The translations under genes were made by a program, and so were the position numbers. The notes under the pieces were generated by a model. That model was given only the letters and a program-made list of their open reading frames with translations, ran no database searches and had not been told where the DNA came from. Shown one piece after another: positions 5,955-64,000 of a DNA stretch of 64,000 nucleotides; position 1 is the first letter of the stretch; each line of letters starts with the position of its first letter. Source of the stretch: Candidatus Zambryskiibacteriota bacterium (GTDB lineage Bacteria; Patescibacteriota; Minisyncoccia; Phycocordibacterales; WO2-35-19); contig CAWJAC010000006.1 of NCBI GenBank assembly GCA_963840745.1, positions 97,947 to 161,946 of the forward strand, given 5' to 3'.

Positions 5955-5994
5955 AAAATAAAAACTGCTGGCGAAAACCAGTGGTTTTTATTTT
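5955..5994 (+). terminator. Intrinsic terminator candidate
   Basis: aaaataaaaactgctgg / ccagtggtttttatttt hairpin with a T-run. Confidence 0.55.
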
Positions 5995-9414: not shown

Positions 9415-9860
9415 GATAAAATTTCCTCAACTATTTTTTTAACCAAAGCGCCGTCGGCTTCGCCTTTGCATTCTTTCATAACTGCTCCCATAAACTGGCC
9501 CATTTTGGTTTTATCTATTTCACCCATCTCTTCTTTCTTTTTCAAAACAATTTCTTTTATTTTCTCCTCCGACATCTGGGCGGGTAGGAATTCTTCCAAA
9601 ACTTTAAGTTCTGCTTTTTCATTGTCAGCGAGATCAGCTCGGCCACCCTTCTCAAATTGTTCTATCGAATCTTTTCTCTGCTTAACCAGCCTTCTTATTA
9701 CAGCAACAGCTTCCTGGTCTGATAATTTATCTTTAGGTGTTCTTTTGAGTGCCACTGACTCGTTTGTAAAAGCGGCCAAAATGCCGCGCAAGGTCGTTAA
9801 TCTCACCTGATCTTTGGCCCGCATGGCGATCGGTATTTGGTTTTGTATTTTATCGTGCAT
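9411..9860 (-). CDS. GatB/YqeY domain protein
   Basis: 149 aa with a typical YqeY-like sequence (LRGILAAFTNE, KQRKDSIEQFEKGGRADLA). Confidence 0.8.
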   Translation of the reverse strand: MHDKIQNQIPIAMRAKDQVRLTTLRGILAAFTNESVALKRTPKDKLSDQEAVAVIRRLVKQRKDSIEQFEKGGRADLADNEKAELKVLEEFLPAQMSEEKIKEIVLKKKEEMGEIDKTKMGQFMGAVMKECKGEADGALVKKIVEEILS

Positions 9861-9889
9861 AAAATCATTATATTGTATATAATAATTTT

Positions 9890-10967
9890 ATGCAAAACAT
9901 TGCTTTAATAATATTGGCAGTAGGGCTGATTTTGGCTATTTTTGCTTTGCTCAGAAAAAAAGAAGAGCCCAAAAATAACGATACTGGTCTTAAACTCATC
10001 CTCCAGCAAATAAACGAACTCAATCGCACCGTGGATGCTAAAATCGGCGAAAATGCTCGCCAGACTAACGAAACAATAAAAACCCAGCTCGGCGAGTCCG
10101 CTTCGCTTATTCGCGAAGTGACAAAAGGTTTGACCAAATTGGACGAGACAAACCGCCAGGTGGTTTCTTTTGCCGACCAGTTGCAAAATCTGCAGGACAT
10201 TTTGAAAAATCCTAAACAGCGGGGAATTTTGGGCGAGTATTATTTGGAGACATTGCTCAAAAATGTTTTGCCGCCGGGGCAGTATCAGATGCAATATGCT
10301 TTCCCAAACGGCGAAATTGTGGACGCGGTGGTTTTCGTCAAAGACAAAATCATTCCGATTGATTCCAAATTTTCGCTGGAAAACTACAATCGTTTGACCG
10401 AAGCCAAAGACCCGGCGGAAAAAGAACGATTGGAAAAAGCTTTTTGTCAACGATTTGAAAGATGCGCATCACAGAAACGTCAAAATACATTCGGCCAGCC
10501 GAAAGGCACAATGGATTTCGCTTTCATGTTCATTCCGCACGAAGCGATTTATTATGATTTGCTCATAAATAAAATCGGGCGGAGTGACCGAGGATACCGA
10601 AAATCTGATCCAGCGCGCCGCCGGCAAGTATAAAGTCATCATCGTCTCGCCGACTTCTTTTTTGGCTTATCTGCAGACCGTTTTCCAGGGGCTGAAAGCC
10701 ATGCAGATAGAAGAAACGGCCAAAGATATCATCAAGCGCGTCGGTGAGCTCGGCGATCATTTGAAAAAATACGAAACATATCACAGCAAACTGGGGGCAT
10801 CTCTGGAAACGGTGGTCAATCATTTCAACGCTTCAAGCAAGGAGTTTAAAAAGGTGGATAAGGATGTAATGAGGATAACAGGTACGTCAGTTGAAATAGA
10901 AACGCCGCTTATTGAAAAGCCGGAGACGGAGAGTAGAAAGAGGGAAATAAAATTGTTCCTGCGTTAG
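9890..10967 (+). pseudogene. rmuC: DNA recombination protein RmuC, interrupted by about 4 frameshifts
   Basis: RmuC-like sequence is spread over three frames. Shifts occur at T5 10441-10445, the A-run 10458-10460, gaaagg about 10500 and the A-run 10571-10574. The conserved MDFAFMFIPHEAIYYDLL and KYKVIIVSPTSF blocks are present. Confidence 0.75.
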
Positions 10968-11006
10968 GTCGTAAGGATAAGGCTCTTGGAACAACATTAT
11001 TTCCCT
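10941..11006 (+). repeat. Conserved-loop hairpin, copy A (3' end of rmuC)
   Basis: 19-nt arms agggaaataaaattgttcc / ggaacaacattatttccct (17 of 19 paired). Loop tgcgttaggtcgtaaggataaggctctt. The rmuC stop TAG lies in the loop. Confidence 0.8.
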
Positions 11007-11050
11007 GTTTTCTTGCAGAAAATACAAAAATCCTGTAAAGTGGTATGACT

Positions 11051-11508
11051 ATGGCAGAAATAAGAGAAATCAAAACAACTCCACAGAGGCTGGGCCAAAG
11101 ACCCCTAAAACCAAGGGTACTTCAAAAACCACGAAGCTTAAGGCTGCTAAGAAAGCTCCTAGCGGCGGAGCTTTTGCCATAATTGAGACAGGTGGCAAGC
11201 AATACAGAGTGACTGTGGGGGATCTTATTAAAATTGAGAAAATGAAAGCCGACTCCGCCAAAGGCTCCGTCGAGCCGAAGAAAGGGGATTCGGTAATTTT
11301 TGATAAAGTTCTCTTGATTGACAATGGCATTGGTTCCACTGATATCGGCACGCCGTACATTGAAGGAGCCAAGGTTTCAGGTACTCTGGTTGAGATTGGC
11401 CGCAACGCCAAAGTTATGGTCATCAAATACAAACAAAAAAGCCGTTACTTCAAGCGCAACGGCCATCGTCAGCCATATTTCAAAGTTAAGATTGATAAGA
11501 TTGGATAA
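11051..11508 (+). CDS. rplU: Ribosomal protein L21 with a Lys-rich N-terminal extension; start uncertain
   Basis: AFAIIETGGKQYRV...KRNGHRQPYFKVKI. The ATG at 11051 is in a different frame from the conserved core, so there is either a frameshift or an unidentified start. Confidence 0.8.
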
Positions 11509-11540
11509 CAAAAAACCGAAATCAATCGGTTTTTTGTTAT
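11505..11540. terminator. Bidirectional intrinsic terminator
   Basis: ataacaaaaaaccga / tcggttttttgttat, a perfect 15-bp stem between convergent rplU and the VKOR gene. Confidence 0.7.
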
Positions 11541-12112
11541 CCAAAAAAGAAATCCCTAAAGTGAAAAAAGATTAAAAAAATAATTAAGAGATACCAAATG
11601 ATCAGAACTTGTATGTGGTTGCGGGAAACAAAATGAAAAAATGAGTCAAATTTTTTGGAAAAATGCCCTTCCCTAAAATTCCAAACGGTAGTGTAAAGGA
11701 AAAGAGGCCACGTGACTGCCCAAGTGATCATGCAATAAAGACAAAGAGAGCCGATGCGGTAAACGCTTTCAAAGAAGAACCACATGACGAAAACCATTGC
11801 TGCCAAAGTACCCAAATTAACCAGTAGCCAAAGCGGTTTTTTGGCTCGGCCTCCGGAAAATAGCATCACTCCGATAGCGAATAGCATCGCAAAAGCGGTA
11901 ATGCCCAAAAGGGAATTAGGGAAGCCGAAAATTTGGCTTTGCCAAGTAGAGGCAACTGAGGTGCAGCTTATGAAAGGGTTAATGTTGCAGGGCAGATTTA
12001 CGTTAGGATTTTTTATGAATTCTATGGTGTCTACCGTTAGCACGAAAGAAGCCAAGAGGCCTATAATACTGCCAATCATCAAAATATAGTGGTAAGTTTT
12101 TTGTATACTCAT
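11537..12112 (-). CDS. Vitamin K epoxide reductase (VKOR) family membrane protein
   Basis: Multi-TM protein with a loop Cys pair (CNINPFISC) and a CxxC (CLYC) in a TM helix. Confidence 0.8.
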   Translation of the reverse strand: MSIQKTYHYILMIGSIIGLLASFVLTVDTIEFIKNPNVNLPCNINPFISCTSVASTWQSQIFGFPNSLLGITAFAMLFAIGVMLFSGGRAKKPLWLLVNLGTLAAMVFVMWFFFESVYRIGSLCLYCMITWAVTWPLFLYTTVWNFREGHFSKKFDSFFHFVSRNHIQVLIIWYLLIIFLIFFHFRDFFFG

Positions 12113-21833: not shown

Positions 21834-22327
21834 ATGAAGCTTAAAATTGCTATTGCTTGTTTGGTAGTGTTGGTTGTTTTGGTGGGGACAGTGCCTTCTT
21901 TTAGGGCGCCGGTTCTTGATTCTCTCTCGGCTATTTATGCTTCAGTCTTGTGGGTCTGACAAATCAAAACAGGGCAGCGGCCAATGTCTCGCAGCTGACC
22001 GTCAGTCCGATTCTAGAAAAAGCCGCCCAAATGAAAGCTGATGATATGGCAGCCAAAGGTTACTTTGCTCACAATACCCCGGAGGGCAAAACCCCTTGGT
22101 ATTGGTTTGACCAAGCTGGTTATAAATACATTTATGCTGGAGAAAATTTAGCAGTTAATTTTGAAAACAGCGCTGATGTGGAAACCGCTTGGATGAATTC
22201 CCCCGGCCATTTCCTCAATATTATGAATCCCAAATTTACTGAAATAGGCATCGCCACATCAACTGGTATGTATAAAGGTAGGCAAGCGGTATTTGTCGTC
22301 CAGATGTTTGGCGCACCGAACAAATAA
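21834..22327 (+). CDS. CAP/SCP/PR-1 (YkwD-like) domain protein with an N-terminal TM helix (apparent frameshift near 21948-21953)
   Basis: LTNQNRAAANV...GHFLNIMNPKFTEIGIA is a CAP domain. The TM-encoding ATG at 21834 is in another frame. Confidence 0.7.
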
Positions 22328-22408
22328 GTAAAAACCAAAATAGCTACTGTTCCTGCGTTAGGTCATAAAGATAAGGCTCTTGGAACAGACTATTTTGGTT
22401 TTTACTTA
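22327..22408 (+). repeat. Conserved-loop hairpin, copy B (3' end of the CAP-domain gene)
   Basis: Arms aagtaaaaaccaaaatagctactgttcc / ggaacagactattttggtttttactt (about 25 bp with a 2-nt bulge). Loop tgcgttaggtcataaagataaggctctt. Confidence 0.85.
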
Positions 22409-22436: not shown

Positions 22437-23351
22437 CTAAAGCTTTACGGCGTCGCCTGCGGCTATATTATTTTGATGATAAAGACCATCAGTGCAATCG
22501 CCGGCTGCCCATATTCCATCCAAGCTTGTTCTCTGATTTTTGTGATCAATTTTTATGCGTTTGAATTCGTCCATTTCAACTAAGCCTTCAGCAAAATCGG
22601 TTGAGGGATTGTGGCCGATTTCTACAAATATGCCGTCTGTTTCAATTTCAACATTGTCTACAAAAGGCGCAGTTCTCTGATAAACTAGAGATTTTACAAA
22701 GTTACCTGCCCTGAGCTTGTCGAATGGGTCGCCTTTTATTTCAACTGGTGTGGCATTTGTCACAGCTTTCATTTTTGGATTGGCTAGCACTTTTTCAACC
22801 GTCACAGGATCGGCGCGGAATTCGCCTCGGTTTATCAAGGTTACGCTTTTACAATAGGCGAGAAGTTGGGCCGCCGATTCAAAACCGGCATTACCGCCTC
22901 CTATAACAACTACATTTTTGTCTGCAAAAAACGGTCCGTCGCAGGAAGCACAGTAAGTAATGCCTTTGCCTTCAAATTCTTTGGCCCCCGGGTATTTCCA
23001 ATTTTTTCCTGGAACTCCAGTGGCCATTAATACTGTTTTGGTTTTATAGTATCTTTATTTGTAGTGACAACAAATCCATTATCTATCTTTTGCTACTTTT
23101 TTCACTTTTTCGCCCTCTTTTATATCAACAAAACTATCGGCATATTTTTTAACATGTTCTTTAAATTTTTTAGCGAGATCGACACCTGAAATAGCTGGCG
23201 TGCCTATCCAGTTTTGAATTTCGTTTGATTCAACCGACTGACCGCCAAAACTTCCGGCAATAAGAAGTGTCTTTATTTGCTTTCTGGCCGCATAAACTCC
23301 TGCCGCCGCTCCCGCCGGCCCACCTCCTATAATAATTAAATCGTAGTTCAT
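22437..23351 (-). CDS. trxB: Thioredoxin-disulfide reductase (two apparent frameshifts, about 23034-23046 and 23076-23087)
   Basis: IIGGGPAGAAAG FAD motif, redox CASC, GGGNAGFE NADPH motif. The missing segment DNGFVVTTNKDTIK / TKTVLMATG is readable in the other frames. Confidence 0.85.
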
Positions 23352-23365
23352 AAAATTATTGTATC

Positions 23366-23440
23366 AAAAAAACAAATAATATCATTTCAAGAGCCTTATC
23401 CTTATGACCTAACGCAGAAATGATATTATTTGTTTTTTTT
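23366..23440 (-). repeat. Conserved-loop hairpin, copy C (3' end of ftsZ, minus strand)
   Basis: The minus strand reads aaaaaaaacaaataatatcatttc-tgcgttaggtcataaggataaggctctt-gaaatgatattatttgttttttt. The stem is about 23 bp and perfect. Confidence 0.85.
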
Positions 23441-23446
23441 GATAAG

Positions 23447-24603
23447 TTATTTAAGTTTTGATCTTCTCAAAAATGCAGGCACGGCGCCCCATTCATCATC
23501 GTCATCTATAATATTTTGTTTTTTCTCTTCCGGTTCTTCTTCTTTTTTATCTGATTTTTCATTTCTAAATACGGAATTAAATATTTTACCTTTGCCGTTT
23601 TCTGTCTCTCCTGCGCCTTTGTCTCCAAACAAATTGCTTTTCGTATAATTTTCTGGAAAACCGGAAGCGATAACGGTAATTTTTATCTCACCCTTTTTGA
23701 GTTTATCATCGCGGACGGTACCGAATATTATTTTAGCGTTTGGATCTACCGATTCGGTAATAAATTTGGCGGCATCGTGTATTTCAAACATTGTCAGATC
23801 ATCGCCTCCGGCAATTGAAAAGAGTACTCCTTTGGCGCCATTTATGGAAACTTCAAGAAGTGGGGAATTGATGGCCAATTTAGCCGCTTCCTCAGCTCGT
23901 TTCTCACCGCTAGCTCTGCCTATGCCCATCAAAGCTCCGCCGGCGCTTTCCATGATGGCCCGCACATCGGCAAAATCTATATTTATAATTCCGGGCATGG
24001 TGATGAGGTCGGAGATGCCTTCCACAGCTTGTTTCAATATGTCATCGCACATGGCAAAAGCGTTTTTGGCAGAGGTTTCTTTATCAATAGTAGCAAGCAG
24101 TCTATCATTTGGAATAACGATTAAAGCATCAACTGACTGCCGAAGCTCTTCAAGCCCGCTTCAGCCAGCCGCATTTTTTGCTGGCCTTCAAAAGAGAAAG
24201 GTTTAGTTACGACTCCAACTGTCAAAGCGCCTAATTCTTTAGCGGTACGAGCGATAACGGGACCGGCTCCGGTGCCGGTGCCTCCCCCGGATCCATAAGC
24301 AATGAAGACCATATCGGCTCCTTTGATAGCTTCCTGTATTTCTTCTTTGGTTTCTTCTACCGCTCGTTTACCAAGTTCCGGATTCATGCCGGTACCCAAA
24401 CCTTTAGTTAAATTTTTTCCTATGTGTATTTTCTTTTTGGCTTCTGAATGATGCAGGTCTTGAGCATCTGTGTTTACTGCAATAAATTCCACTCCTCTCA
24501 CTTTGGAGTTAATCATATGATTAACGGCATTTTTGCCGGAACCTCCGACGCCTATAACCTTTATTCTAGCAAAGACTTCTACTTCTGGTTTTATTTGAGG
24601 CAT
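23447..24603 (-). CDS. ftsZ: Cell division GTPase FtsZ (one apparent frameshift near 24146-24160)
   Basis: [11 protein letters not shown] and [11 protein letters not shown] tubulin signatures. A 1-nt shift restores ...[24 protein letters not shown]... Confidence 0.9.
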
Positions 24604-42442: not shown

Positions 42443-43114
42443 ATGGTCGGCATGACCATAAATTTAAAAGCTGAAAAAAGAGAAAGGATAGGGAAATTAG
42501 AGAGTTTAAGGAAAGCGGGTTTTATGCCGGCGGTTTATTATGGACACAAAAAAGAGTCAACTCCTATTCAAATTAAAAAAATTGATTTTTTAAAAGCTTG
42601 GAAAAATGCCGGTGAATCCACCGTTATTAAATTAGAAACTCCGGATGGCGATTTGGAAGCCCTTATTCATGATGTGGATTTAGATCCAATTACGGATGAA
42701 CCGAGGCATGCTGATTTTTACGTTTTTGAAAAAGGTCATAAGGTTGAGATCGCGGTGCCTTTGGAGTTCATTGGGATTTCCCCAGCTGTCAAAGATTTGG
42801 GTGGAGTGCTTATGAAAATTTTGCATGAAGTTAAAGTTTCAGCCGAACCTTCTAATTTGCCTCACCAGATTGAGGTTGATATTTCTCCTATTACCGAGCT
42901 TGAAGGACAGATTTTGGCCAAAGATATTTCCTTGCCGAAAGGAGTTCTACTTATGGAAAATCCTGAAGAAGTGATTGCGACTGTGGCCACCCCTAAGGCA
43001 GAAGAAAAAGTAGAAGAAGCTCCGGCCGACCTCTCTTCAATAGAAGTTGAAAAGAAGGGTAAGAAGGAAGAAGAAGGAGAGGGAATCAGAAAACCATTGT
43101 CTACTAGAAACTGA
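42443..43114 (+). CDS. rplY: Ribosomal protein L25/Ctc
   Basis: LRKAGFMPAVYYG, plus a Ctc-type C-terminal domain and an acidic tail. Confidence 0.85.
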   Translation: MVGMTINLKAEKRERIGKLESLRKAGFMPAVYYGHKKESTPIQIKKIDFLKAWKNAGESTVIKLETPDGDLEALIHDVDLDPITDEPRHADFYVFEKGHKVEIAVPLEFIGISPAVKDLGGVLMKILHEVKVSAEPSNLPHQIEVDISPITELEGQILAKDISLPKGVLLMENPEEVIATVATPKAEEKVEEAPADLSSIEVEKKGKKEEEGEGIRKPLSTRN

Positions 43115-43156
43115 AAAGGCTCTAAAAGAATATATTTTTTGCTATAATAAACCTGT

Positions 43157-60978: not shown

Positions 60979-61275
60979 ATGAGACTGGGTTTTACCGAAG
61001 GAACCGAATTTTTTGAAAGAATGATTGTCTGGTTTTCTTCTCCGTCTAGAAGAAGCACGCCAATCAATCATTTTGAACAAAGAGAAAAAATGTGTGAGAA
61101 AGGAAGAGAGCAATTTTATCACTTTCTTGCAAACCCAGCTAACGATACTGCATTTCTTGCCCACGTTGAGCCAACAAAAAAGAATGGCGGGTGCTTGAAA
61201 TGCCGCAAAGTGTTTTGTAAATATATAGAATCAGTCACAAGTGTTGGTGACACTTCATATAGCGTTAGCAGATAA
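60979..61275 (+). CDS. Hypothetical protein (position suggests a YceD/DUF177-like partner of rpmF; not supported by motifs)
   Basis: 98-aa ORF immediately upstream of rpmF, with a CxxC near the C-terminus. Weak. Confidence 0.3.
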   Translation: MRLGFTEGTEFFERMIVWFSSPSRRSTPINHFEQREKMCEKGREQFYHFLANPANDTAFLAHVEPTKKNGGCLKCRKVFCKYIESVTSVGDTSYSVSR

Positions 61276-61613: not shown

Positions 61614-62495
61614 ATGGCAAACAGGCACCTTGCAAGATCAACAGTTCTTCAAACTCTCTATGAGTGGGATTTTAGCGGTCAAAAAATAAATCCTGAGGAC
61701 ATACTTCGAAGGGATGTTACTGAATTTGCTCCGGGCGCAGAATCTCAGAATTTTATGACGGATCTTTTGGGCGGAATAATTTCCAAACAAAAAGATCTTG
61801 ATAATGTAATCGCATCCGCCGCTCCGGAATGGCCAATTGAAAAAATCAGTGTTATGGATAGAAATATCCTGAGGCTCGGTCTTTATGAATTGCTTTTTGC
61901 CGATAGAGAACAGGTTCCTCCCAAAGTGGCCATCAATGAAGCCATCGAACTGGCCAAGAAATTCGGTGGCGAGACAAGCGGCAAATTTATAAACGGCGTT
62001 CTGGGCGCAGTTTACAAAGAGATGGGTGAGCCGGGCAAAGATGATAAAAGCGCTCCAAAAAAACCAGCTACATTGGAAAGTCATGCCGGTGCTGTCGTTT
62101 ATGCTAATCACCAAAAAGAAATATATGTGGCATTAGTTCACGACGTCTTCGGTCATTGGACATTGACTAAAGGCAAGATGGAAAAAGGGGAGAGCGAAGA
62201 AGATGCCATAGTGCGTGAAGCCAAAGAAGAGCTCGGCATACCAATTGAAGTCAAAAGCCGCCTCGGTGAAAACAGTTACGAAACATTTCATCCTGAAAAG
62301 GGCAAGTTGAAAAAGCACATTATATACTTTTTGGCCGAAGCGCCGTTTGAGGAATTGACACTGGAGAATAAAGAAAAGAAAGGTGGTCTCGATGATGTCA
62401 GATGGTTTAAGCTGGCCGAAATACTTGACTTGAATTTTTATGATGATATTTTGCCTATTGTCACCAAAGCCATCAACTTATTAGTGAAAAGTTAG
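61614..62495 (+). CDS. nusB: NusB antitermination factor fused to a C-terminal Nudix hydrolase domain
   Basis: NusB: ARSTVLQTLYEWDF, AINEAIELAKKFGGETSGKFINGVLG. Nudix box: GKMEKGESEEDAIVREAKEELGI. Confidence 0.85.
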   Translation: MANRHLARSTVLQTLYEWDFSGQKINPEDILRRDVTEFAPGAESQNFMTDLLGGIISKQKDLDNVIASAAPEWPIEKISVMDRNILRLGLYELLFADREQVPPKVAINEAIELAKKFGGETSGKFINGVLGAVYKEMGEPGKDDKSAPKKPATLESHAGAVVYANHQKEIYVALVHDVFGHWTLTKGKMEKGESEEDAIVREAKEELGIPIEVKSRLGENSYETFHPEKGKLKKHIIYFLAEAPFEELTLENKEKKGGLDDVRWFKLAEILDLNFYDDILPIVTKAINLLVKS

Positions 62496-62501
62496 AAAGC
62501 C

Positions 62502-63200
62502 ATGAAAGAAAAAGAACTTGACGGATTTGAAAAACTGATCGAAATAGAATTTAAAGATAAAGATTTGCTTAAGCAGGCGTTTACTCACCGCTCTTTTTTG
62601 AATGAACACAAAGCTCTCAAGAGCAAGCACAATGAGCGGCTTGAATTTTTAGGAGATGCGGTGCTCGAACTTGTCATCACTCATTATTTATACGAAAAAT
62701 ATCCGGATAAAAATGAAGGCGATTTGACCTCTATCCGGAGCGCCTTGGTCAACGCCACCACCTGCGCCGAGGTGGCAAAAAAATTGGAAGTCAATGATTA
62801 TCTGCTCCTTTCAAAAGGCGAGGCTAAAGATACGGGGCGAGCTAGGCAATATATTTTGGCTAACGCTTTAGAAGCGATTATCGGAGCCATTTATGTTGAT
62901 TTGGGATACGAGTCGGCGCAGGATTTTATAATGAAGCATATCGCTCCCATGACCTCTCAGATAGTCAAAGAACAACTTTGGGTGGATGCCAAAAGCAAGT
63001 TCCAAGAAAAAGCTCAAGATATAGAAGGAGTCACTCCATCATACAAAACCATAAAAGAAGTCGGCCCCGATCATGATAAAAAATTTACAGTTGCTGTTTT
63101 TCTCGGTGACATTTTGGTCTCCGAAGGCGAAGGAGAATCCAAACAGGACGCCGAACAATCAGCCGCCCGCAACGCTCTCAAAGAAAAGGGATGGGATTAA
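62502..63200 (+). CDS. rnc: Ribonuclease III
   Basis: NERLEFLGDAVLEL signature and a C-terminal dsRBD. Confidence 0.95.
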   Translation: MKEKELDGFEKLIEIEFKDKDLLKQAFTHRSFLNEHKALKSKHNERLEFLGDAVLELVITHYLYEKYPDKNEGDLTSIRSALVNATTCAEVAKKLEVNDYLLLSKGEAKDTGRARQYILANALEAIIGAIYVDLGYESAQDFIMKHIAPMTSQIVKEQLWVDAKSKFQEKAQDIEGVTPSYKTIKEVGPDHDKKFTVAVFLGDILVSEGEGESKQDAEQSAARNALKEKGWD

Positions 63201-63273
63201 AAATTGCAAAAACATTGTTTCTACGTTAAGTCATAAGGATAAGGCTCTTGAAACAATGTTTTTGCAATTTTTT
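63199..63273 (+). repeat. Conserved-loop hairpin, copy D (3' end of rnc)
   Basis: Perfect 23-bp arms aaaaattgcaaaaacattgtttc / gaaacaatgtttttgcaattttt. Loop tacgttaagtcataaggataaggctctt. Confidence 0.9.
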
Positions 63274-63294
63274 CTGTTATAATTTACTACAATT

Positions 63295-64000
63295 ATGCTT
63301 AAATCGTTGGAGATATCGGGATTTAAAAGTTTTGCTAAGAAAACCGAACTTAATTTCAAATCGCCCATCACCGCCATAGTCGGACCAAACGGCAGCGGCA
63401 AATCAAACGTTGCTGAGGCTTTTAGATTTTGTTTAGGAGAACAATCCATTAAATCAATGCGCGGCAAGCGCGGCGAGGATTTGATTTGGAACGGTTCAAC
63501 TGAGGTAAGCCGCTCAAACAGAGCCAGTGTAAAAATTGTTCTTGATAATAGCAAAAATTTATTCGGTTTAGATTTCGAAGAAGTGATCATTGAGAGAGTG
63601 GTCAATAGAGACGGCGGAAACGAATATTATTTGAACGGCTCTTTGGTGCGGCTTAAAGATATTATTGAACTCCTCTCCCAAGCCCATATTGGCGCTTCGG
63701 GACATCACATAATCTCCCAAGGAGAGGCAGACCGAATATTGTCAGCAAACATAAAAGAAAGGAGAGAGATGATAGAAGATGCATTGGGGCTTAAGATTTA
63801 CCAATATAAAAGAGAAGAGAGCGAAAGGAAACTTTTGAAAACAGAGGAAAATATAAAACAGGTGGAATCTTTGAGGAGAGAAATCGCGCCGCACATCAAA
63901 TTTTTGAAAAAACAGGTTGAAAAAGCGGAGAAGGCGGAGGATTTGAGAGTTAAGCTTTGCAATTTTTACAGGCAATATTTAAAAAAGAGAAAAAATATAT
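63295..64000 (+). CDS. smc: Chromosome segregation protein SMC, N-terminal part (runs off the window)
   Basis: MLKSLEISGFKSFAKK...GPNGSGKSNVAEAF Walker A, then a coiled coil. The frame is open to position 64000. Extended -10 TGTTATAAT at 63275-63283. Confidence 0.9.
   Translation, partial: MLKSLEISGFKSFAKKTELNFKSPITAIVGPNGSGKSNVAEAFRFCLGEQSIKSMRGKRGEDLIWNGSTEVSRSNRASVKIVLDNSKNLFGLDFEEVIIERVVNRDGGNEYYLNGSLVRLKDIIELLSQAHIGASGHHIISQGEADRILSANIKERREMIEDALGLKIYQYKREESERKLLKTEENIKQVESLRREIAPHIKFLKKQVEKAEKAEDLRVKLCNFYRQYLKKRKNI

Follow-up and report, generated by a model that had tools for sequence, protein, structure and literature searches.

A dispersed hairpin repeat that conserves its apex rather than its stem in Paceibacteria-type Patescibacteria

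How can a palindromic element keep its loop almost unchanged from copy to copy while its stem is rewritten, and what could such a hairpin do at the end of a gene? The question is raised by four elements in a stretch of 64,000 nucleotides (the window) from contig CAWJAC010000006.1 of a Candidatus Zambryskiibacteriota bacterium (assembly GCA_963840745.1, positions 97,947 to 161,946), one of which directly follows rnc, the gene for RNase III. An original prediction, made from the sequence alone, had described them as long hairpins at the 3' ends of genes, with a common 28-nt loop and unrelated stems. The hairpin family is real, and apparently undescribed as far as the searched libraries show. It is restricted to Paceibacteria-type Patescibacteria and is a dispersed palindromic intergenic repeat and probably a transcript-end hairpin, unusual in conserving the apex and not the stem. 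A fixed apex on free stems is an unusual mode of evolution for a repeat. Moreover, Patescibacteria are uncultivated and have minimal genomes, and their transcript-end and RNA-decay signals are essentially uncharted.

Existence and anatomy of the family

The loop consensus (CGTTARGTCRTAARGATAAGGCTCTT) matches the window exactly four times, at 10962-10987, 22356-22381 and 63224-63249 on the plus strand and at 23389-23414 on the minus strand, while 0.00 matches are expected in shuffled window sequence. The elements thus lie at the places and on the strands first reported; the limits of the full 28-nt loops are given in Table 1. All four copies are long hairpins with z-scores from -4.1 to -8.3, and none of 200 shuffled sequences folds equally well. 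Arms of 19-23 nt surround the loop and are, as had been claimed, nearly perfectly self-complementary (87-100%): the copies at 23.4 kb and 63.2 kb reach 100% and the copy at 10.9 kb 87%, and the one at 22.3 kb has a small internal defect. A separate short-read contig of the same organism (L083, 7324-7382) contains the rnc copy letter for letter. Since the copy is reproduced in an independent assembly, the element is not an assembly artefact. This contig ends inside the right arm, which suggests that the hairpins fragment metagenome assemblies and are a practical cause of assembly breaks.

Two pattern scans extended the family. The first, with 18 specified loop bases and one genome per species, found 26 loci, 15 of them in metagenome-assembled genomes (MAGs) of Patescibacteria (Nomurabacteria, Zambryskibacteria, Paceibacteria and unnamed groups) and 11 in other phyla. 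All 15 Patescibacteria matches also carry the part of the loop that the pattern did not require, and all lie within a hairpin of 20-30 bp, so that the flanks are self-complementary in every one of them. The 11 other matches have neither the full loop nor a hairpin, and their number is close to the chance expectation. The second scan, of metagenomes with a different loop sub-pattern, yielded further copies of the hairpin family; here too, each Patescibacteria match combined the full loop with a long hairpin, and matches outside the CPR had neither. A covariance model (R1) built from 41 copies gave 47 matches, representing 46 distinct copies, all in Paceibacteria-type MAGs or metagenomes and all long hairpins. 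Contigs from the Hainich aquifer wells H41, H43 and H51 are among the carriers. Altered loops are among them, with GGCC for GGTC, TTGGG for TTAGG or a rewritten apex (CAGTTAAG). The model separates true copies cleanly, as these score at least 63 bits and anything else at most 41 bits. With filters off, R1 finds exactly four copies in the window, where other hairpins score at most 23 bits. The element is therefore a compact and easily searchable motif of 75-90 nt, palindromic, intergenic and dispersed.

No known RNA family accounts for it. The whole window searched against Rfam 15 at gathering score returned four tRNA matches only, and a permissive search of 63150-63320 returned only generic microRNA-type hairpin models, the best at 29.9 bits against a gathering score of 90. 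Full-text literature searches yielded no description of the element either. A phage or viral origin was rejected: a phage collection gave only chance matches of 25 nt to a stem arm and no full-length match, and two scans of IMG/VR viral contigs gave 0 matches.

The A/T-rich stem of approximately 19-30 bp is maintained by compensatory change. Among the 41 copies, 23 of 24 pairs change on both sides (215 sequence-by-pair cells), which is matched by none of 500 shuffles, and sliding the partner columns abolishes the signal. Two orthologous copies (L012 and L064) differ by four double changes and zero single changes in the stem. Orthologous copies overall show 0-2 differences in the 28 loop positions versus up to 18 in the 48 arm positions; at the site orthologous to copy 3 of the window, for example, an intact element in locus L032 differs from the window at 0/28 loop and 18/48 arm positions. 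The stems are nevertheless not without common sequence. At the stem top, the two pairs at positions 3-4 below the loop are U-A in all or nearly all copies (39-41 of 41), and 37 copies close the loop with C-G, so that the invariant unit is TTNC-loop-GNAA, approximately 36 nt, and this stem top is common to all four window copies. The inner ~14 bp fall into two lineage types, type A (arm AAAAC(A)TNNTGTTYC) in the window, in Hainich bins and in Zambryskibacteria, and type B (arm AAAT(C)AAAYYTTRC) in Nomurabacteria, while the outermost arm sequence is the least conserved part. Arms are 62-71% identical among window copies, and for copies at different loci of other genomes the identity reaches 94%. 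Consequently, of the claim that the stems are unrelated, the pairing kept by double changes holds, but the absence of any common sequence does not.

The helix carries a characteristic defect. In 24 of 41 copies, one base bulges out of the 5' arm exactly 10 positions below the loop; copies without this bulge mostly have an A.C or C.A mismatch at positions 5-11, and only seven are perfect. Overall, A.C and C.A mismatches (19) outnumber G.T and T.G (3), and for this reason stem stability, taken without the loop, is slightly higher on the antisense strand in 33 of 41 copies. In our reading, a helix defect about one turn below the apex is probably favoured on the sense strand. The loop itself probably forms a 4-bp helix, P2, of loop nucleotides 8-11 with 22-25, capped by AUAAGGAUAA. 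It can be paired in 46 of 46 distinct copies, and each of four substitutions converts a wobble pair into a Watson-Crick pair, whereas the loop fold preferred by RNAfold is broken in two copies. P2 is thus proposed tentatively from one-sided changes. Because two of its pairs are G.U, it can form on the sense strand only. With the loop left open, the median fold energy is -28.6 kcal/mol. A small open reading frame (ORF) and a three-frame stop were both rejected for the loop, since stop codons occur in two frames only and there is no conserved start.

Genomic position, orientation and turnover

Contexts were called from ORFs of at least 90 amino acids and checked by cross-locus tblastn where possible. 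Between tandem genes, 26 copies lie in sense and 3 in antisense orientation; 4 copies are in convergent and about 6 in divergent intergenic regions, and 6 are at contig ends. These counts include orthologous copies, so that independent counts are lower. Translation was used to check one antisense case, which lies between two ABC-ATPase genes (L015), and the divergent promoter regions comprise at least four independent sites. The expectation that the element is always in sense and at a 3' end is therefore borne out by all window copies, but for the family it is only a strong tendency in view of the 26:3 ratio and the divergent sites. GC skew is positive throughout the window, and the lone minus-strand copy (23.4 kb) follows minus-strand genes. 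Hence, orientation tracks transcription and not replication.

Where the element is in sense, the stop codon of the upstream gene falls within the left arm or shortly ahead of it, between tandem as well as convergent genes. The stops of rnc, the CAP-domain gene and the C-terminal fragment of ftsZ, 24-33 nt before the loop, agree with the proposal that every copy begins at a stop codon. The fourth case does not, because the RmuC-matching frame crosses the left arm of copy 1 and stops at a TAG (10965-10967) within the loop. Downstream of the hairpin the usual layout is an extended -10 element (TGnTATAAT-like) with an ATG approximately 6 nt later and no Shine-Dalgarno sequence, and the element marks intergenic boundaries beside such leaderless-type promoters. 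The flanking genes are core genes and often highly expressed ones (groEL, infB, rpsO, rpsF, pgk, ftsZ, atpB-atpE, rplJ-rplL, dnaK). Among the neighbours inspected there are housekeeping genes only, and no transposase, nuclease or other candidate enzyme gene stands beside a copy.

Among the 66 long ORFs of the window, a TATAAT-like hexamer is found 4-9 nt before the ATG in 20 and a Shine-Dalgarno-like sequence in 11. Examples of the former layout, often TG-extended, are 63275-63297, 23345-23365 (minus strand) and 9870-9892. The pattern suggests that leaderless mRNAs and transcription units of one gene are widespread in this organism. A role of the loop as Shine-Dalgarno decoy or standby site (UAAGGAUAAGG) was rejected in view of this rare use of Shine-Dalgarno sequences and because downstream genes start approximately 6 nt after the -10 element. 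Loop or arms were also rejected as the -35 element of the downstream promoter, since TTGNAA at the loop/arm junction is 18-24 nt away from the -10, too long in most copies.

At the site orthologous to copy 2, locus L032 has an ordinary GC-rich hairpin of 12 bp with a 7-nt loop in place of the element. Such a swap of hairpins fits a terminator or 3'-end role. Like an intrinsic terminator, the element is a stable hairpin at the 3' end of a gene; the small loop of 3-8 nt and the U run directly after the stem are lacking, and its loop has 28 nt. Roles in termination, processing or stability of the transcript may be inferred from these positions. Of the originally suggested function in the transcript, the sense bias and the conventional hairpin of L032 speak in favour, but the divergent sites and the patchy, dispensable occurrence among close relatives do not.

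This patchiness is seen at several sites. In the yqeY/rmuC divergent region the element is present in L054 and L072, while the window site is empty and 29 nt long; conversely, the 3' end of rmuC carries a copy in the window and none in L054. The divergent region between yqeY and an exonuclease gene contains the element in opposite orientations in L001 and L006. At the rnc-smc junction the element occurs in the window only and in 0 of 8 relatives with 81-89% identical Rnc, seven of which were read in sequence, the eighth (P0009 contig) being judged from a 44-nt gap in gene coordinates. The position of a putative RNase III substrate right behind rnc, to which the original prediction had drawn attention, is therefore coincidental. 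The seven sequenced relatives have no copy in approximately 96 kb, where about six would be expected at the density of the window.

Whole hairpins also recur at unrelated places. An arm subfamily with 75-94% identity over both arms and a common internal mismatch is found before atpE, dnaK, rplL and pcrA in different genomes, and the arms of copy 4 recur beside recJ in L009. The family is thus gained, lost, inverted and decayed on short time scales and most likely spreads as a whole hairpin. From this turnover and the recurrence of whole hairpins we conclude that its behaviour is that of a spreading repeat, like REP, Correia or MITE elements. As in MITEs, dispersed copies that are present in one genome and absent from another at an orthologous site were found; terminal inverted repeats matching an insertion sequence (IS) and target-site duplications were not, and no IS lies near any copy. 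In L078, TAAAATATTGC follows the rnc stop and hinted that insertion had duplicated the upstream flank in inverted form. The same arm occurs at another locus in L009, however, and the resemblance is probably coincidental.

Origin and role of the hairpin

With about even confidence, we favour a spreading palindromic repeat, similar to REP or Correia elements, that is retained in sense orientation as a transcript-end hairpin and whose apical module is read by a factor. We are led to it by the strand-specific apex and bulge, the sense bias, the equivalence with a conventional hairpin, the patchiness, the intact copies in divergent regions and the recurrence of whole hairpins. According to this model, whole hairpins would reach new intergenic sites and would then be lost, inverted or decayed. 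The repeat would be kept chiefly at sites, and in the direction, in which its RNA hairpin benefits or at least does not harm the 3' end of the upstream transcript, so that at retained copies the transcript of the upstream gene would carry the sense loop. There the hairpin might serve as a transcript-end structure, i.e. as a bidirectional terminator and a 3'-end protector and likely as an RNase III substrate, and the extended -10 promoter of the next, mostly leaderless, gene would directly follow it. Cleavage of stems of 20-30 bp by RNase III, as originally proposed, is plausible on general grounds.

The 36 apical nucleotides are kept across order-level divergence, at which the flanking proteins are approximately 50% identical, and a sequence-specific reader therefore seems to be required. 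The invariant apical module would be the docking site of this factor, for spreading, for the RNA role or for both. A more specific proposal, which we regard as unlikely, is that the 36-nt apex is the binding site of a dedicated Paceibacteria protein that reads the loop and measures one helical turn to the bulge. Such a protein could be a loop-guided transcript 3'-end factor, with a logic like that of stem-loop-binding proteins or of yeast Rnt1p, a loop-measuring RNase III enzyme. Alternatively, it could be a new kind of hairpin-mobilising enzyme that recognises its target by the loop and not by the termini. Either would be of high interest, and in both cases the element would provide a direct handle on the RNA or DNA biology of an uncultivated lineage. 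Profiling the element against gene content could identify the implied reader. If the element is simply a selfish repeat, it would be the first described repeat family of this kind found for the group.

The element has features in common with several known systems. REP and BIME elements of enterobacteria and pseudomonads, which are associated with RAYT transposases, are likewise short, dispersed, imperfect intergenic palindromes with patchy occurrence between lineages. REP elements are co-transcribed with the upstream gene, their hairpin protects the 3' end, and their mobilisation is attributed to one enzyme that recognises the hairpin. They differ in their conserved stem with 5' GTAG and their paired clusters, whereas the present element has a conserved unpaired apex, drifting stems and single copies. 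No gene for a RAYT-like Y1 transposase was found in approximately 670 kb of loci, and GTAG is not conserved at the foot of the element. A 9-mer (GGATAAGGC) is presumably common to the element and to E. coli REP.

Correia elements (NEMIS) of Neisseria and the MITE-like ERIC, RUP and bcr1 are also palindromic intergenic repeats that fold as long RNA hairpins. Elements of the Correia type have 100-150 nt, are cut by RNase III when located on mRNAs, affect mRNA stability, and may contain or adjoin promoters and terminators. They have conserved terminal inverted repeats and a TA target duplication; in our element of 75-90 nt the termini are the least conserved part and no duplication is visible. 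Integron attC sites share the imperfect hairpin right after a stop codon, the fixed orientation and the extra-helical bases in an otherwise free sequence. In attC, however, the R boxes at the foot (RYYYAAC/GTTRRRY) are conserved, the apex is variable, and cassette arrays lie beside an integrase, while the element conserves its apex and not its foot and stands singly between syntenic core genes. The RNase III hairpins of phage T7 (R1.1 type) are similarly intercistronic and in sense, and their upper and lower stems likewise come with an asymmetric helix defect. In T7 the hairpin stays on the upstream RNA and protects its 3' end. Both T7 sites and intrinsic terminators have small loops without a long invariant loop sequence.

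Several points weigh against a retained transcript-end repeat. About six copies lie upstream of both divergent promoters and are intact, although an RNA role is unlikely there. Intrinsic terminators have a free U-tail; in the element the T-runs are paired with A-runs inside the stem and form no separate free tail, and the 8 nt following the hairpin contain 2.2 T on average, which is no excess over the mirrored A count at the hairpin base. A simple terminator scan, restricted to loops of 3-8 nt, leaves the copies unflagged. The higher stability of the antisense stems (33 of 41) could mean that the complementary strand is the folding one, and compensatory changes can also arise by template switching in quasi-palindromes, i.e. 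in the absence of selection on RNA. With respect to spreading, no transposase, conserved terminal inverted repeats or target-site duplication were found at the copies inspected, and the boundaries are fuzzy, the flanks often extending the stem.

Of the alternatives, a host-encoded and non-mobile 3'-end signal survives best, yet we consider it unlikely. A dedicated RNA-binding protein would read the apical module and govern how transcripts are terminated, processed or stabilised, a logic known from the histone mRNA stem-loop with its binding protein, and copies would come and go by ordinary mutation and selection. This would explain why the loop is near-invariant across order-level divergence on free but paired arms, why the geometry is fixed with the bulge 10 bp below the loop, why the loop helix is possible on the sense strand only, and why tandem copies are in sense at 26:3 and a conventional hairpin replaces copy 2 in L032. 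It does not explain whole hairpins with 75-94% identical arms at non-orthologous loci, opposite orientations in the same intergenic region of two genomes, or intact copies in divergent promoter regions. The absence of copies from approximately 96 kb of seven close relatives is also hard to square with a core signal and a housekeeping factor.

An element acting at the DNA level is, in our estimation, somewhat less likely still. In this case a single-stranded DNA hairpin or a cruciform would have its loop and extra-helical base read by an enzyme of the HUH/Y1 transposase or integrase type, and the sense bias would arise secondarily, as harmful orientations are selected against. IS608 TnpA and integron integrases recognise hairpins by structure and an extra-helical base, with a free stem sequence, and the element might be recognised in the same mode. 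Turnover and spreading of the family, intact copies in probably untranscribed regions and the slightly better folding of the complementary-strand stems are consistent with this proposal. Nevertheless, orientation follows transcription in the one informative window case and in tandem regions, the copies have housekeeping neighbours and no candidate enzyme gene, the viral and phage searches described above were negative for full-length matches, and no conserved motif resembling a cleavage site was seen at the hairpin foot.

We give little credence to the idea, raised with the original prediction, that a mini-element of 28 nt targets the loops of terminators already in place, so that the outer stems would be the old terminators. 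The outer stems are indeed site-specific, those of L034, L054 and window copy 1 look terminator-like with a GC-rich foot and a T-run, and the window has long A/T-flanked hairpins that lack the loop. The conserved unit exceeds the loop, however, as it includes the stem top and lineage-typed inner arms, and arms are kept over 22-25 nt between non-orthologous loci. The rnc sites of relatives contain no hairpin built from the outer stem of copy 4, and the conventional hairpin of L032 is unrelated to the stem of copy 2.

Very improbable is a nut-like antitermination or Nus-regulated signal, in which the 3' end of the loop (GGCUCUUG/A) would be a BoxA-like site for NusB/NusE (S10). It was suggested by the BoxA sequences of E. 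coli rrn operons (TGCTCTTTAACAA, TGCTCTTTAAAAA), by a NusB-domain protein encoded two genes upstream of copy 4, and by the match of GCTCTTGAAAC in 9 of 11 positions to the BoxA consensus GYTCTTTAANA, which is a gamma-proteobacterial consensus (bioRxiv 10.1101/091223). The match ends after GCTCTT in type B copies, and six bases are weak evidence. There is no GCTCTT in the leader proper of the 16S rRNA of four close relatives, where the conserved pre-16S block is TTTTTTGTTTTGTTCCGTT, and relatives without the element have the neighbouring NusB-NUDIX gene as well.

The 16S leaders of these relatives (L075 16365-16640; L076 18760-19130; L077 15150-15620; L082 13930-14235) have a TTGACA promoter, a conserved hairpin (GAGCCTGGGTAAGGTTTG...) and the block TTTTTTGTTTTGTTCCGTT just before the 16S rRNA. 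This block is a candidate for a lineage-specific antitermination or processing motif.

Pairing of the loop with rRNA was rejected, because the best complement in E. coli is a 10-mer (CCTTATCCTT in 16S rRNA) and 341 of 2000 shuffled loops do equally well or better. In the 16S rRNA of two close relatives, no complement to the loop exceeds an 8-mer and no identity a 9-mer, and a supposed 11-mer match of the loop to Firmicute 16S rRNA was not reproducible with the sequences compared.

The window copies and their surroundings

The features of the window are collected in Table 1. Pfam assigns the neighbours of the copies to RNase III followed by SMC, a CAP-domain protein, the C-terminal part of FtsZ, and RmuC.

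Table 1. Coordinates of the hairpin copies and associated features in the window
Feature	Position	Strand	Description
Copy 4 (reported copy)	63199..63272	+	left arm 63199-63221, loop 63222-63249 (TACGTTAAGTCATAAGGATAAGGCTCTT), right arm 63250-63272; 23-nt arms, 100% complementary; R1 score 89.8 bits
Extended -10 and smc start	63275..63297	+	TGtTATAAT, hexamer 63278-63283, ATG 63295-63297; directly 3' of copy 4
Copy 1	10937..11010	+	arms 10937-10959 and 10988-11010, loop 10960-10987; 87% complementary
Copy 2	22325..22408	+	convergent intergenic; outer arms 22325-22343 and 22390-22408, inner arms flanking loop 22354-22381
Copy 3	23366..23439	-	arms 23366-23388 and 23417-23439 (100% complementary), loop 23389-23416; between ftsZ C-terminal fragment and trxB
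Decayed relic	43090..43142	+	loop 3' end and right arm kept (AAGGCTCT-AAAAGAATAT...TTTTTTGC); directly before TATAAT

Copy 4 lies between rnc upstream and smc downstream, and the rnc stop (TAA, 63198-63200) overlaps the first bases of the stem. The smc start has no Shine-Dalgarno sequence, a layout like that 3' of most copies in other genomes; the extended -10 in front of it is a putative promoter. Copy 1 has A.A and A.C mismatches 8-9 bp below the loop. The left arm of copy 2 contains the stop of the CAP-domain gene (TAA, 22325-22327). After correction of an evident 1-nt indel in trxB, the stop codons of both convergent genes are located in the stem, the true stop of minus-strand trxB presumably in the right arm. 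The left half of the relic is degenerate and R1 does not detect it, but in L011 the orthologous site is occupied by an intact element.

Compared with their intact orthologues, several core genes of the window are interrupted (9890-10967, 22437-23351 and 23447-24603). Here rmuC consists of two overlapping frames and ftsZ of an N-terminal and a C-terminal ORF, and in trxB a short stretch with two stops (KDR*WICCHYK*RY) is out of frame, and a 1-nt indel is probable near the 3' end of the gene; the independent short-read contig L083 likewise has a split rnhB. These interruptions look like indel errors or recent pseudogenes, and homopolymer lengths in the window stems should be read with care.

Other A/T-flanked hairpins, perfect or nearly so, with 15-19 bp and small loops, are found in intergenic regions at 11501-11544, 5955-5994, 9856-9894, 2394-2430 and 61016-61076. 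They are probably the ordinary terminators of the genome, and their sequence is unrelated to the arms of the element.

Directly upstream of rnc, a protein of 293 amino acids (61614-62495, plus strand) unites a NusB domain with a NUDIX hydrolase domain, a position kept in all relatives examined. The fusion suggests an RNA-targeted pyrophosphohydrolase. Downstream of rnc, the closest relative (L078, 89% identical Rnc) carries between rnc and smc an insert of 304 nt (1591-1894), comparatively GC-rich and structured-looking, for which Rfam gave no match at gathering score. Still other inserts are present at this junction in L075 and L076. Thus, the rnc-smc junction is a hot spot.

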